From: Methanocaldococcus sp. 16A | GTDB lineage: Archaea > AGJL01 > Methanococci > Methanococcales > Methanocaldococcaceae | Assembly: GCA_049860595.1 (NCBI GenBank) | Contig: CP187551.1 | Length of the DNA: 64,000 bases | Reading direction: 5' to 3' (one strand) | Part shown: piece after piece, positions 19,341-52,097 of the stretch | How the letters are laid out: each line of letters begins with the position of its first letter | Position numbering within the stretch: the first letter of the stretch is position 1 | Made by a program: the position numbers and the translations under genes | Notes under the pieces: model-generated | What the model saw: only the letters and a program-made list of their open reading frames with translations | Databases searched by the model: none | What the model was told of the DNA's origin: nothing

Positions 19341-19421
19341 TTAAAATAATATACCGTTGAAGTTCTATATAAATTTTTCGATTTTGTTCATATTTATTGC
19401 ACAACCATACTCAATCATAAG

Positions 19422-48591: not shown

Positions 48592-49443
48592 TTATTCTAA
48601 TTTGCTCTCCTCGATTTTGTCTTTGTAATATAAGGCGATAGCTCTTTTTGAAAAAACTGATAGGAAAAACCCAACAAATCCAGAAACTGTTGCTGAAATT
48701 AATTGAATAATAGCTGACGTTGGCGAAATTGTATTTGCATAGTATGAATATGCATGAGGGGAAAACAATACATCCATTAATATAAATGGAGCAGATATTA
48801 CGCTCTCAATTATTAATATTATAATTCCAATAACAATAACTAATACAATATACTTTAATGACATCATTTTAATTATTTTTTTAAACTCAAAAAATCCTAA
48901 AAATCCATTAATGGAAAAATTAACTTCTGCTAGTGGAAGATAAAACGCTAATAATATAATAGATATAACAAATATTACAAATGATATCATTAAAGAAACT
49001 AATCCTATGATTCCATCTTGTGTAATTAGTAATACACTAATACCGAATAATATAATTGGAATTATTAAAAATACAAATGCTAAAATTAAAATCCCAATAA
49101 AGTATAAAAACCCTCTCATAAGTAAATCAACGAGATTGTCCCATTCAGGTAAATTATCAAAACCTTCAACCGTAGTTTTCATAATCCTTACATAATAACC
49201 ATCGATTACAAATTCAATTACTAGACTAATTAAAAATCCAACGGCTATTGCTATTAACATCCCTGTTAATATTTTAACAATATTATATGGATTTGAATCA
49301 ACTCCTGTAGTAAATATGAGTATTGATAGTAAAACACTAAAAACTCCAGAAATTGCTAACAATAAACCCCCAATTATTCCTTTTTTAATATCTGAAAATG
49401 CATATTTAAAGGCTTCAGTAATATAATCTTCGAATTTTCTCAT
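48592..49443 (-). CDS. DUF4013-like membrane protein
   Basis: EAFKY, GYYVRI and LPEW motifs; multi-TM; ATG 49443 preceded by GGGGGAGGG. Confidence 0.78.
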   Translation of the reverse strand: MRKFEDYITEAFKYAFSDIKKGIIGGLLLAISGVFSVLLSILIFTTGVDSNPYNIVKILTGMLIAIAVGFLISLVIEFVIDGYYVRIMKTTVEGFDNLPEWDNLVDLLMRGFLYFIGILILAFVFLIIPIILFGISVLLITQDGIIGLVSLMISFVIFVISIILLAFYLPLAEVNFSINGFLGFFEFKKIIKMMSLKYIVLVIVIGIIILIIESVISAPFILMDVLFSPHAYSYYANTISPTSAIIQLISATVSGFVGFFLSVFSKRAIALYYKDKIEESKLE

Positions 49444-49557
49444 ATTTTCCCTCCCCCTTAGATTTAATTTTAATATTTTGAGTTGTGCTTTTTTAAATAT
49501 ATAATTTCTCATAAAAATTATTTTAAATATTTAAATAAATGAATAAAAACAGCGAAT

Positions 49558-49679
49558 AAAAAATATATGTGGGGGAGGGGTATTAAACTGTAAATTTTGA
49601 TAATCCAACCGGAGCCGGCTCCTACGGCGCGGGTTATCAGCAGTGAGGTGGGGGGGCTCACCACTGTCCCACCCGCGCC
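49558..49679 (-). ncRNA. Putative GC-rich structured small RNA or leader (~120 nt)
   Basis: 9-bp stem GGCGCGGGU/ACCCGCGCC, inner CAGUG/CACUG, GGAGCCGGCUCC palindrome; BRE-TATA at -38..-24; U6 run at the 3' end. Confidence 0.7.
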
Positions 49680-49702
49680 AACTTGTTATAATATACTTTA
49701 CC

Positions 49703-49717
49703 TATATAAACTTTTCG
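49703..49717 (-). promoter_or_regulatory. Archaeal BRE-TATA promoter of the GC-rich RNA
   Basis: Minus strand CGAAAAG-TTTATATA, ending 24 nt before the first G of the stem (49679). Confidence 0.7.
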
Positions 49718-49869
49718 ATACAGAAAAGTTTAATTAAACTAAAATTTTTTTAATTTGAATTGAATTATTAGATTACCTAATAGCTTCCATTAGTTAGTTT
49801 AAGAATATATATTTTTATAGGTAACTTCCTAATTAATTGATTGTGATTTCTATTCTTGGAGGTGAATCT

Positions 49870-51843
49870 ATGTCCCCAAGAATTGGGGTATTTGTCTGTT
49901 ACTGTGGAGCAAACATTAATGGTGTTGTAGATTGTGAAGCAGTAAGAGATTTTGCTGAAAAATTAGATGGAGTCGTTGTGGCTAAGACCTATCCTTTTAT
50001 GTGTGCTGACCCAGGGCAAAACTTGATTAAAGAGGCAATAAAAGAATACAACCTCGACAGAGTCGTTGTTGCTGCATGCACACCAAAAATTCACGAACCT
50101 ACTTTTAGAAACTGTATAAAAGAAGCAGGATTATCTCCATATTATTTGGAGTTTATTAACATTAGAGAACACTGTTCGTTCGTTCACATGAATGAAAGAG
50201 AAAAGGCTACTAAAAAAGCAATGGAGTTAGTTGCTGGTGGAGTTGAGAGAGCTAAGAGATTGGAAGATGTTCCACAAAAAATTGTAGATGTTGATAAATC
50301 CTGTTTAATTATTGGAGGAGGTATTGCTGGAATTCAGGCGGCTCTTGACTTAGGAGACCAAGGTTATAAGGTATATTTAGTAGAAAAAGAGCCATCAATT
50401 GGAGGAAGGATGGCTCAACTTGCTAAGACATTCCCAACTGATGACTGTGCGCTGTGAATTTTGGCCCCAAAGATGGTTAGCGTTGCAAACCACCCCAATG
50501 TTGAGCTCATAACCTACGCCGAAGTTAAAAATGTTGAAGGATACATTGGAAACTTTGAAGTTACAATTGAGAAGAAACCAAGATATGTTGATGAAAATGT
50601 CTGTACTGGATGTGGGGCTTGTGCAGCTGTTTGTCCAATTGAAGTACCAAACGAGTTTGATTTAGGTTTAGGTACAAGAAAAGCTATATATGTCCCATTC
50701 GCACAGGCAGTTCCATTAGTTTATACAATTGATATGGACCACTGTATAAGATGTGGTTTGTGTGAAAAAGCTTGTGGTCCTGGAGCTATAAGATACGACC
50801 AAAAACCTGAAGAAATCAAATTGAAGGTTGGAACAATTATCTGTGCAGTAGGTTATGATGAATTTGACTGCACACTAAAAGAAGAGTATGGTTATGGTGT
50901 CTATGACAACGTCATAACTACATTAGAATTAGAGAGAATGATTAACCCAGCAGGACCAACAGGAGGGCATGAAATAAGACCAAGTGACGGAAAGCATCCA
51001 CACAGAGTTGTATTTATCCAGTGTGTTGGTTCAAGAGATGCTAAAGTTGGAAAGCATTACTGTTCAAGAATCTGCTGTATGTTCGCATTAAAGAATGCCC
51101 AATTACTTAAGCAGCATGACCCAAGCACTGAAGTTTATATCTGCTACATGGATATTAGGGCATTTGGTAAAGGATATGAAGAGTATTACAGAAGAGCTCA
51201 AGAGCAGTTTGGAGTTAAGTTTATTAGAGGAAGACCAGCTTGTATAATGGAAGACCCAGAGACAAAGAACTTAATCGTTAGAGTAGAAGATACATTATTA
51301 GGAGAAATTGTAGAGATTGAGGCAGATTTAGTTGTATTGTCAGCTGGTTTATCTCCAAGACCTGACAATCCAAAATTAGCTAAGATGCTTGGTTTAGAAT
51401 TAAGTCCTGATGGGTTCTTCAAAGAACTGCATCCAAAGTTAGCTCCTGTTAATACAAAAGTTGATGGTATAGCAATTGCTGGAGTAGCTCAGGGACCTAA
51501 AGATATTCCAGATACAGTAGCTCAAGCTAAAGGGGCAGCGAGTGCTGTTTCAATACCAATGGCTCAGGGGCAGTTTAAGATAGAGATGATTAGAGCTGTT
51601 GTTGATGAAGAGGTCTGTGGAGGCTGTAAGGTCTGTGCTAAGATGTGTCCATATAACGCTATAACATATGTGGAAAAAGATGGACACTTAGTAGCTCAAG
51701 TCAATGACGTTGCATGTAAGGGATGCGGTTCATGTGCAGGAGCATGTCCAAGTGGAGCAATGCAGTTGAGATACTATAGAGATGAGCAAATAATTTCATT
51801 CATTGATGGAGTGTTAGAAGCTCACCAAAAGTTAGAAGGATAA
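49870..51843 (+). CDS. hdrA: Heterodisulfide reductase subunit A, selenoprotein (657 aa, Sec196)
   Basis: The two track ORFs join in frame across TGA 50455-50457 ([14 protein letters not shown]); GGAGGTGA RBS; 3' SECIS. Confidence 0.96.
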
Positions 51844-51968
51844 AAACTTTAAGATAATGCACAAGCCCCACATCCAAATATTGAAAAGTTCTTGGAAACA
51901 TTATCTAACATTTACTAATATATGGCGTAGGTTATGAGCTCAACATTGGAAAAAGATAAACCAGATGA

Positions 51969-52002
51969 GGCACCGCCCGAAGGCATTTGCCAGGGTGGTG
52001 CT
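51969..52002 (+). promoter_or_regulatory. Archaeal SECIS element (hdrA)
   Basis: GGCACCGCCC-GAA-GGC-AUUU-GCC-A-GGGUGGUGCU: GAA/A internal loop plus 3-bp GC apical stem. Confidence 0.92.
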
Positions 52003-52097
52003 GATGGGGGGTAAGTACCCTTAACTTATTATAAATTTGATTCTCATATACTCATCAAATTGTTTAAATCAAAATTAATAACTTTGAGGGGTTAGTT

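Follow-up and report, generated by a model that had tools for sequence, protein, structure and literature searches.

In this 64,000-nucleotide stretch of DNA from Methanocaldococcus sp. 16A (called the window below, always at its full length), the minus strand of positions 49558-49717 carries what is almost certainly a genuine gene for a structured non-coding RNA (ncRNA), pointing away from the hdrA-vhu selenoprotein operon. This RNA belongs to a family which is absent from the Rfam catalogue and which occurs once per genome in most Methanococcales. The new family would be, by kind, one of regulatory small RNAs (sRNAs), and a plausible mechanism can be drawn from the sequences: the RNA would be an independent transcript of about 115-122 nt, running from the G at 49679 to a run of T and acting in trans by masking G-rich ribosome-binding sites (RBSs). 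We give this reading as a whole roughly one chance in two; for the masking step taken by itself our estimate is the same or slightly lower. A preliminary description, made from the letters of the window alone, had already proposed an uncatalogued, promoter-driven and structured minus-strand RNA diverging from the operon, and that proposal holds.

All the sequence elements of the preliminary description were found again at their places. The element is indeed a GC island in an AT-rich spacer, with a G+C content of 70% at 49610-49669 and of 5-33% in the flanks. On the minus strand it is preceded by an element resembling the transcription factor B recognition element (BRE), CGAAAAG (49711-49717), and by a TATA box, TTTATATA (49703-49710). 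The end of the TATA box lies about 23-24 nt from the G at 49679, which opens a hairpin and which we infer to be the transcription start; the preliminary description had called this spacing correct. The 5' hairpin as a whole, GGCGCGGGUGGGACAGUGGUGAGCCCCCCCACCUCACUGCUGAUAACCCGCGCC (49626-49679), is supported by RNAalifold and by covariation. It consists of a stem P1 of 9 bp (49679-49671 / 49634-49626), of an asymmetric internal loop in which GGGA (49670-49667) faces AUA (49637-49635), of a stem P2 of 10 bp (49666-49657 / 49647-49638) and, at its tip, of the apical loop CCCCCCCAC (49656-49648). Further 3', always on the minus strand, come the mini-hairpin P3, GGAG-CCGG-CUCC, which is the 12-nt palindrome GGAGCCGGCUCC (49611-49622), the single-stranded segment AAUUUACAG (49588-49596), the C-rich tract CCCCUCCCCCAC (49569-49580), unpaired in the consensus fold and proposed below as the seed of base pairing, and a run of six T (49558-49563). 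Oligo-T runs terminate transcription in archaea, and this one is probably the terminator of the RNA. The motif CCCCCAC occurs twice in the RNA, as announced, each copy being conserved. For the 125-nt stretch the folding energy is -42.4 kcal/mol (z = -2.66), and one of 200 shuffled sequences folded equally well. The stretch is present as a single copy in its own genome, which excludes a repeat or a mobile element. The 14-mer GAAAANTTTATATA, which joins BRE and TATA box, has two copies in the window for 0.02 expected, a 100-fold excess; the second copy (19366-19379, minus strand) lies about 60 nt 5' of a CDC48-like gene with a GGGGGG ribosome-binding site.

The comparisons were made on 40 genomes of Methanococcales: those of the genus of the window (g1: its own genome and 16 others) and those of four other genera, called g2 (seven genomes), g3 (13), g4 (one) and g5 (two). 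The whole unit was matched by BLASTN in 11 of the 16 other same-genus genomes, with 70-93% identity. When the 12 sequences are aligned, the BRE and the TATA box, the internal loop, the C run of the apical loop, the motif AAUUUAC of the single-stranded segment, the C-rich tract and the T run turn out to be invariant or nearly so: the GAAAA of the BRE, the TATA box and AAUUUAC are the same in 12/12 genomes, all of which also have a run of five to seven T, while CCCCUCCCCCAC is identical in ten of the 12 and is replaced by UCCCUCCCCCAC in G011 and by CCCCUCCCAC in G010. Applied to this alignment with no structure as input, RNAalifold recovered P1 and P2 and left the 3' half, AAUUUAC included, unpaired. 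Over P1, P2 and the four base pairs of P3, 99.6% of the cells of the alignment are paired and seven pairs are changed on both sides; in 500 shuffles the observed value was never reached, and controls in which the structure was slid along the alignment had 35-58% of their cells paired. P3 is present in nine of the 12 genomes. In two of these nine an A-U pair has become G.U, a change which is tolerated in RNA and which breaks the DNA palindrome. Genomes G006, G010 and G011 lack P3 wholly and keep the rest of the RNA. P3, a perfect palindrome, could also serve as a dimerisation site between two RNA molecules.

A covariance model of the genus alignment (R1) found weaker, full-length matches in all four other genera of the order. 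There too hdrA adjoins the matching RNA, which is independent evidence; hence we concluded that these matches are homologues. In an order-wide alignment of the hairpin (A4, 27 sequences), 96.5% of the cells are paired and 12 of the 19 pairs are changed on both sides; no shuffle out of 500 was as high, and slid controls had 26-59% of their cells paired. GGGA is kept in 26 of the 27 sequences and AUA in 25, and the pairs flanking this internal loop (G-C, U-A, Y-G, A-U and G-C) hardly vary. The preliminary description had called for a search across Methanococcales. Carried out with an order-wide covariance model (R2), it gave exactly one match per genome in 28 of the 40 genomes: the own genome and 11 of the 16 others in g1, 7/7 in g2, 6/13 in g3, 1/1 in g4 and 2/2 in g5. 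(The phylum-level set of genomes is the same set of 40.) An exact scan of GTDB for the loop followed by the C run, a rough check whose list misses some known members of the family, returned 26 loci. Nine come from Methanococcales, under the titles Methanocaldococcus, Methanothermococcus and Methanococci; eight of these nine score 51-72 bits with R2, and every bacterial locus scores at most 22.5 bits. Four same-genus genomes which have hdrA (G003, G004, G009 and G015) gave no RNA, beside hdrA or elsewhere, and a search for a diverged copy beside their hdrA with the filters off reached 9.7 bits at best. In G012, whose assembly is 89% complete, neither the RNA nor hdrA was found.

The members of the family share one plan: a 5' hairpin with its fixed asymmetric loop and a C-rich tip, then a small GGAG/CUCC hairpin, then at least one conserved, single-stranded block rich in C, and finally a U run. 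Longer apical loops, such as ACCCCCCUCAUACCCCCAC, are found outside the genus, and there the position of P3 is held by a GGAG..CUCC or a GAGGC..GCCUC hairpin. It is followed by a block, AUCCCAUUCCCACCCCUCAUA, which is almost invariant in the 14 sequences (14/14). Further 3', ten of these 14 RNAs have a second module, AAUUUAC...AACCCCUCCCC(G/A)UUCUAUUUU, and ten of 14 keep ACCCCUCCCC with a U run after it; in all, the C-rich blocks of each RNA number two to four. Elements resembling BRE and TATA box are found about 25-38 nt 5' of the RNA in the other genera as well.

A match to a characterised family would have spoken against a new one. At the gathering score, Rfam 15 has no match at the RNA, its sole match in the window being flpD at 51961-52007. 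With the cut-off relaxed to E<=10 over 49400-49850, four matches at chance level appear, the best of which (S774) scores 27.2 bits against a threshold of 48. The loci from the four other genera gave no relevant Rfam match either.

The RNA strand is the minus strand. We base this on three observations: 23 G.U cells of the same-genus alignment would be A.C mismatches on the opposite strand, the promoter and the T run are both oriented along the minus strand, and the models score 113-151 bits on the RNA strand and a weak 23-34 bits on the reverse one. The same observations ruled out the opposite-strand reading, in which the stretch would be a leader of hdrA. The C run has a length of 5, 6 or 7 depending on the same-genus genome, and such differences shift any frame. 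This means that a conserved reading frame is ruled out and that the RNA is not coding.

The RNA has a constant neighbour. In 24 of 26 loci, across five genera, hdrA adjoins it in divergent orientation; the N-terminal part of HdrA is encoded on the opposite strand, 150-1050 nt from the RNA, in all 14 loci of the other genera and in ten of the 12 same-genus loci. The two exceptions are G010, where the sequence ends at a contig edge, and G014, where the RNA lies away from hdrA. In G014 (L045) the RNA, its promoter and the DUF4013 gene have stayed together, and the sequence 5' of the BRE is unrelated; it contains TCACCTCC, the reverse complement of a Shine-Dalgarno (SD) sequence, perhaps that of another divergent gene. 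In the window, the SD sequence of hdrA, GGAGGUGA, and its ATG at 49870 span 49858-49872 on the plus strand (gene identified with Pfam).

In the mechanism which we propose, the strong BRE/TATA promoter would drive the RNA divergently from hdrA, and the RNA would act in trans through two unpaired C-rich motifs, CCCCCCAC in the apical loop and the 3' tract CCCCUCCCCCAC. A pair of conserved, unpaired C-rich motifs of this sort is a feature of the class of RNAs directed against RBSs. The two motifs are conserved in sequence and show no covariation; being at once unpaired and constrained in sequence, the C tracts look like a seed. They would pair with ribosome-binding regions that follow the pattern (GU)GGGGGAGGG(G), hiding them from the ribosome, CCCUCCCCCAC and GUGGGGGAGGG being the presumed partners in this pairing; sites with five G would match the RNA better than they match the CCUCC of 16S rRNA. 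The 5' hairpin with its GGGA/AUA loop would be a module for stability or for the docking of a protein, or else a self-masking device, a role which is possible because GUGGGA is complementary to UCCCAC. The RBS-targeting sRNA suggested in the preliminary description thus survives as the best reading, with other seeds: the C runs of the apical loop and of the 3' tract take the place of CACCUC, which had been taken for a mimic of the 16S anti-SD and is in fact part of the covarying stem P2 (it reads CACCCC in three of the 12 genomes).

We paired the 3' tail, at 70 C, with the start regions (-30 to +15) of 1736 open reading frames (ORFs) of the own genome, crudely called. A pairing of -14 kcal/mol or lower was reached in 8/1735 start regions and in 0/1735 internal control windows; at -12 kcal/mol or better, the numbers were 19 and 6. 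The candidates with the best scores carry (GU)GGGGGAGGG(G) just 5' of the start codon. According to Pfam, the candidate targets include an ADP-forming acetyl-CoA synthetase, whose start region at G000:C1:1149860 (minus strand) offers 15 complementary bases in a row, three proteases or peptidases (rhomboid, M50-CBS and M48), a CitMHS transporter, an EarA-like regulator, a TPR protein, and a peroxiredoxin and a CMD protein which lie in one cluster. The neighbouring DUF4013 gene is also a candidate (rank 11 of 1735). At G000:C1:812982-818097, several consecutive genes all have GGGGGAGGG(G) or GGGGAGGGG ahead of their start codon, those for a peroxiredoxin and a CMD-family protein being among them; this may be a co-regulated antioxidant cluster.

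Within the genus, the complement of the RNA, GUGGGGGAGG, is enriched in RNA-carrying genomes and does not rise above background in RNA-less ones. The 10-mer GTGGGGGAGG, complement of CCUCCCCCAC, has 8, 11, 7, 17, 6, 13, 3, 3, 6, 6, 6 and 10 occurrences in the 12 RNA-carrying genomes (the antisense copy of the RNA gene itself being included in each count, except for G010), where the reversed 10-mer used as a control occurs 0-3 times per genome; the four RNA-less genomes with hdrA have 1, 0, 1 and 0. For GGGGGAGGGG the counts are 15, 13, 7, 9, 5, 18, 6, 6, 3, 4, 1 and 12 with the RNA, and 1, 3, 1 and 1 without it. The canonical AGGAGGTGAT does not distinguish the two groups (0-7 with the RNA; 6, 1, 1 and 2 without). 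We examined 67 non-self sites of GTGGGGGAGG in eight genomes (60 of the 63 listed and seven from the own genome): 29 of them stop 2-10 nt short of a start codon whose ORF has 60 codons or more. Some genes turn up repeatedly: acetyl-CoA synthetase in five genomes, CitMHS in four and a small CBS protein likewise in four. The synthetase of G005, an open frame of 705 aa, had been overlooked by the crude ORF call. Among eight RNA-carrying same-genus genomes checked, the start region of the synthetase contains GUGGGGGA in seven and GGGGGA in the eighth; it is devoid of a G run in all four RNA-less ones. The synthetase start of the RNA-less G015 (L205), ...CUGUGAUAAUAUG, resembles that of the RNA-carrying G010 (L204), ...CUGUGGGGGAUAAUGUAUG, minus the G run.

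A number of points weigh against RBS masking in trans. The start region of hdrA, with its rank of 568 out of 1735, is predicted to pair weakly: of the link to hdrA supposed in the preliminary description, the divergent adjacency stands across five genera, and the RBS of hdrA is a poor target. The RNA-less genomes of the genus are also the most divergent ones (HdrA identity 82-92%), and the correlation between the motif and the RNA may therefore reflect a single lineage. It is not replicated in g3, where GGGGAGGGG is commoner without the RNA (13, 45, 52, 25, 19, 12 and 40) than with it (8, 4, 5, 3, 25 and 7), in counts which take no account of the composition of the RNA-less genomes and for a pattern which reads the same backwards and hence has no valid control. 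Genome G014 carries the RNA and yet has no GGGGGAGGGG beyond the RNA gene itself. Outside the close relatives the complementarity fades, and only GGGGG or GAGGGG is left in g2 and g5. Any C-rich RNA scores well on SD sequences, which makes the target scan weakly specific, and trans base pairing leaves the invariant GGGA/AUA loop unexplained. Nor do RNA libraries help. Contigs from four runs, belonging to two studies of a relative, are 100% identical to G005 across the RNA (homologue at G005:C1:1129071-1129195). In one run the boundary of a contig (L037:1475-1503) falls at the 3' end of the RNA, these contigs being unstranded and devoid of read ends; in three runs the contigs, again unstranded and possibly due to DNA carry-over, continue into DUF4013 and into hdrA. 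Such contigs are no evidence for or against the limits of the transcript.

The fixed loop would find its place if the RNA acted by binding a protein, as part of a ribonucleoprotein or as a sponge: GGGA/AUA would be the protein site, and the C tracts would titrate a protein which binds poly(C) or sequences of the anti-SD kind. The loop and its five flanking pairs are near-invariant over five genera while the other stem pairs covary, a pattern typical of a recognition site. The two to four C-rich blocks found outside the genus, the invariant AUCCCAUUCCCACCCCUCAUA among them, fit this explanation, and so does a negative result: when the invariant block UCCCAUUCCCACCCCUC was searched in the 40 genomes with up to two mismatches, no long antisense target appeared, the matches being the RNA genes and chance matches in coding regions. 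We nevertheless consider it unlikely. No candidate protein was found. Hfq could be rejected as an obligate partner, the distribution of the Hfq-like and LSM proteins being unrelated to the presence or absence of the RNA. The Hfq-like family (PF17209) is present in g1 (17/17) and g5 (2/2) and in none of the 21 genomes of g2-g4; LSM (PF01423) has the reverse pattern, being present only in g2 (7/7), g3 (11/13) and g4 (1/1); every complete genome carries a gene of one or the other kind, with or without the RNA. The loop is no kink-turn (K-turn), and no site of the rRNA has the same motif: the genome holds no second occurrence of it with GC-rich surroundings, for which reason a mimic of an rRNA protein-binding site was rejected. 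Lastly, a sponge would usually copy the sequence of its ligand, whereas the genome is enriched in the complement of the C tract, which fits base pairing.

Could the RNA, instead of pairing with messengers, be a self-contained folded RNA, sensor or catalyst? In this case GUGGGA would form with the UCCCAC located downstream a pseudoknot, or a switch hiding the seed. UCCCAC is complementary to GUGGGA, and each RNA examined has it or its close variant UCCCCCAC; the variant UCCUAC of G029 keeps the pairing by means of a G.U. No two-sided compensatory change was seen, however: the GGAA of G017 and the GCGGGA of G023 and G025 are uncompensated. The partner has two extra C in 11 of the 12 same-genus genomes, and neither a conserved downstream gene nor a context related to a ligand accompanies the RNA. 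We hold a self-contained folded RNA of this sort to be improbable.

The ligand-sensing leader put forward in the preliminary description is not supported. The gene concerned would be that of the DUF4013 protein (48592-49443, minus strand, identified with Pfam), which lies downstream and outside the RNA; its RBS is GGGGGAGGG (49457-49449) and its ATG is at 49443-49441. As a cis-acting 5' leader or riboswitch, the RNA would sequester this RBS with its C tract. CCCUCCCCC is the exact complement of the RBS, 110 nt downstream, the pairing has the rank of 11 given above, and in a relative three runs have contigs which join the RNA to the beginning of DUF4013, with the reservations already made on strand and DNA carry-over. 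But DUF4013 is the downstream same-strand gene in this genus only. In g2-g5 one finds, 300-450 nt away, a membrane protein of about 180 aa or, in two g2 genomes, a protein of 302 aa. Since the downstream gene varies while hdrA is constant, a cis-acting leader is unlikely; the conserved T run moreover probably ends the RNA and is followed by a spacer of about 110 nt with 5-23% G+C. We hold this explanation to be very improbable.

We give hardly any credit to a K-turn RNA, bound by L7Ae and acting on the hdrA RBS through CACCUC: the GA dinucleotides do face each other if CUG is left unpaired, and the SD sequence of hdrA is GGAGGUGA, but the shifted register of P2 which this requires has A.C and C.A mismatches in G008, G016 and the g2 sequences, CACCUC is variable and enclosed in a stem, hdrA ranks low as a target, and Rfam gives no C/D or H/ACA match. 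The K-turn-like loop GGGA/CUGAUA with a 2-nt bulge, a claim of the preliminary description, must accordingly be redrawn. The CUG of CUGAUA is Watson-Crick paired, within the 10-bp P2, in every one of the 27 sequences, and the helix covaries higher up; this register pairs 95-100% of the cells, and the loop is reduced to GGGA opposite AUA.

The earlier statement that the RNA is not a tRNA, a selenocysteine insertion sequence (SECIS) element, or a C/D or H/ACA RNA is borne out by ARAGORN, Rfam and covariation together. ARAGORN found no tRNA or tmRNA gene in the window. A box C/D RNA has a C stem, a 3-nt bulge, tandem sheared G.A pairs, and C (RUGAUGA) and D (CUGA) boxes near its ends; in our RNA there is no 3-nt bulge and there are no C and D boxes at the ends, and this class was rejected along with the K-turn. 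An H/ACA RNA has a pseudouridylation pocket, an upper stem with a K-turn or kink-loop and an ACA box 3' of the lower stem. Here the sole internal loop is of 4 x 3 nt, no pocket and no Rfam match exist, and the three bases after P1 are GUA, GUG, AUA, AUU or UUU, never ACA; this class was rejected as well. The likeness with K-turn RNAs (box C/D, H/ACA, L7Ae sites) is confined to a hairpin with a purine-rich internal loop and GA on both strands, whereas the covariation contradicts the K-turn register, and bulge, C/D boxes, ACA box and pocket are lacking.

The systems closest to the proposed RBS masking are found in bacteria and in archaea. The bacterial RsaE/RoxS, 6C and IsrR have their own promoter and terminator, and C-rich motifs in loops or linkers which are complementary to the RBSs of many mRNAs. 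They resemble our RNA, as we read it, in being short transcripts with conserved unpaired C-rich motifs complementary to G-rich RBSs; they differ from it in belonging to another domain of life and in having no similarity with it in sequence or model (no Rfam match), and its GGGA/AUA-loop hairpin and fixed position beside hdrA have no counterpart in them. C-rich sRNAs of bacteria which mask SD sequences are described in PMC6486639, PMC9410917 and PMC2790875. In archaea, according to PMC5867862, the intergenic sRNA154 and sRNA41 of Methanosarcina mazei mask RBSs with anti-RBS sequences and repress translation. These two, as far as that account goes, are an archaeal precedent for the mode of action proposed here. 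They come from an unrelated order and another context, with no homology detected in the Rfam search, and their regulons concern nitrogen and acetyl-CoA decarbonylase/synthase (ACDS). GC-rich orphan ncRNAs of M. jannaschii were reportedly found by Klein et al. in 2002, and HgcC, which we take to be the only hgc family derived from M. jannaschii in Rfam, has no match at our RNA in the Rfam 15 search. Li et al. (2008; PMC2602779) list 10 presumptive ncRNA genes of M. jannaschii. With such orphan ncRNAs, so far as these are described there, our RNA shares a GC island in an AT-rich hyperthermophile and a strong promoter of the type bound by TATA-binding protein and transcription factor B, and its locus may already be listed in M. 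jannaschii as an anonymous GC island.

Published data on M. maripaludis contain a hint of expression. In PMC10450193, the transcription start site of the hdrA operon is given as 1639005 (minus strand) and that of MMP1698 as 1639632 (plus strand), which leaves a gap of 627 bp. MMP1698, a gene of 549 nt divergent from hdrA, rises 9.6-9.8-fold upon aCPSF1 depletion according to data in PMC10450193 and PMC7515710. This rise hints at read-through from a strongly expressed upstream RNA, presumed to lie in that gap; MMP1698 could alternatively be induced in its own right. PMC3814884 mentions novel transcripts co-clustered with hdrA-vhu.

Two further observations concern hdrA itself. In the window, the gene is split by a single TGA (50455-50457, plus strand) into the ORFs 49837-50457 and 50461-51843, and the same break exists in relatives, where the open frames have about 200 aa; such an in-frame TGA fits a selenocysteine codon. 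The flpD match mentioned above (51961-52007, plus strand, 56.5 bits) begins 118 nt after the stop of hdrA and folds into GC stems around a GAA / A loop, which resembles an archaeal SECIS element. The equivalent stretch in M. maripaludis (...CCCGAAGGCUAAGGCCAGGG...) is listed in PMC10450193 as an internal site of termination, located between hdrA and vhuD.

A mechanism is known for very few regulatory RNAs of archaea, and in the literature searched we found no such RNA for Methanococcales, nor any account of this family or of its structure, order-wide distribution, seeds or linkage to hdrA. The RNA has clear predicted boundaries, strong covariation and a fixed place beside the operon of a central energy-conserving complex; it merits a family entry and annotation. 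If g2, where 7/7 genomes have it, is Methanococcus, the family reaches genetically tractable species. The control region shared with hdrA-vhu suggests that the RNA would be co-regulated with the status of hydrogen and electron bifurcation. One may go further, although we think this rather unlikely, and see in the RNA an order-wide riboregulator of hydrogenotrophic methanogens, controlled together with Hdr-Vhu, whose regulon would be defined by G5AG3-4 RBSs and would comprise the ADP-forming acetyl-CoA synthetase, membrane proteases, a transporter and a peroxiredoxin, and whose GGGA/AUA loop would be the switch or the protein handle gating access to the seed. If this were true, the RNA would tie both carbon and energy spill-over and the quality control of the envelope to the hydrogen and redox status.

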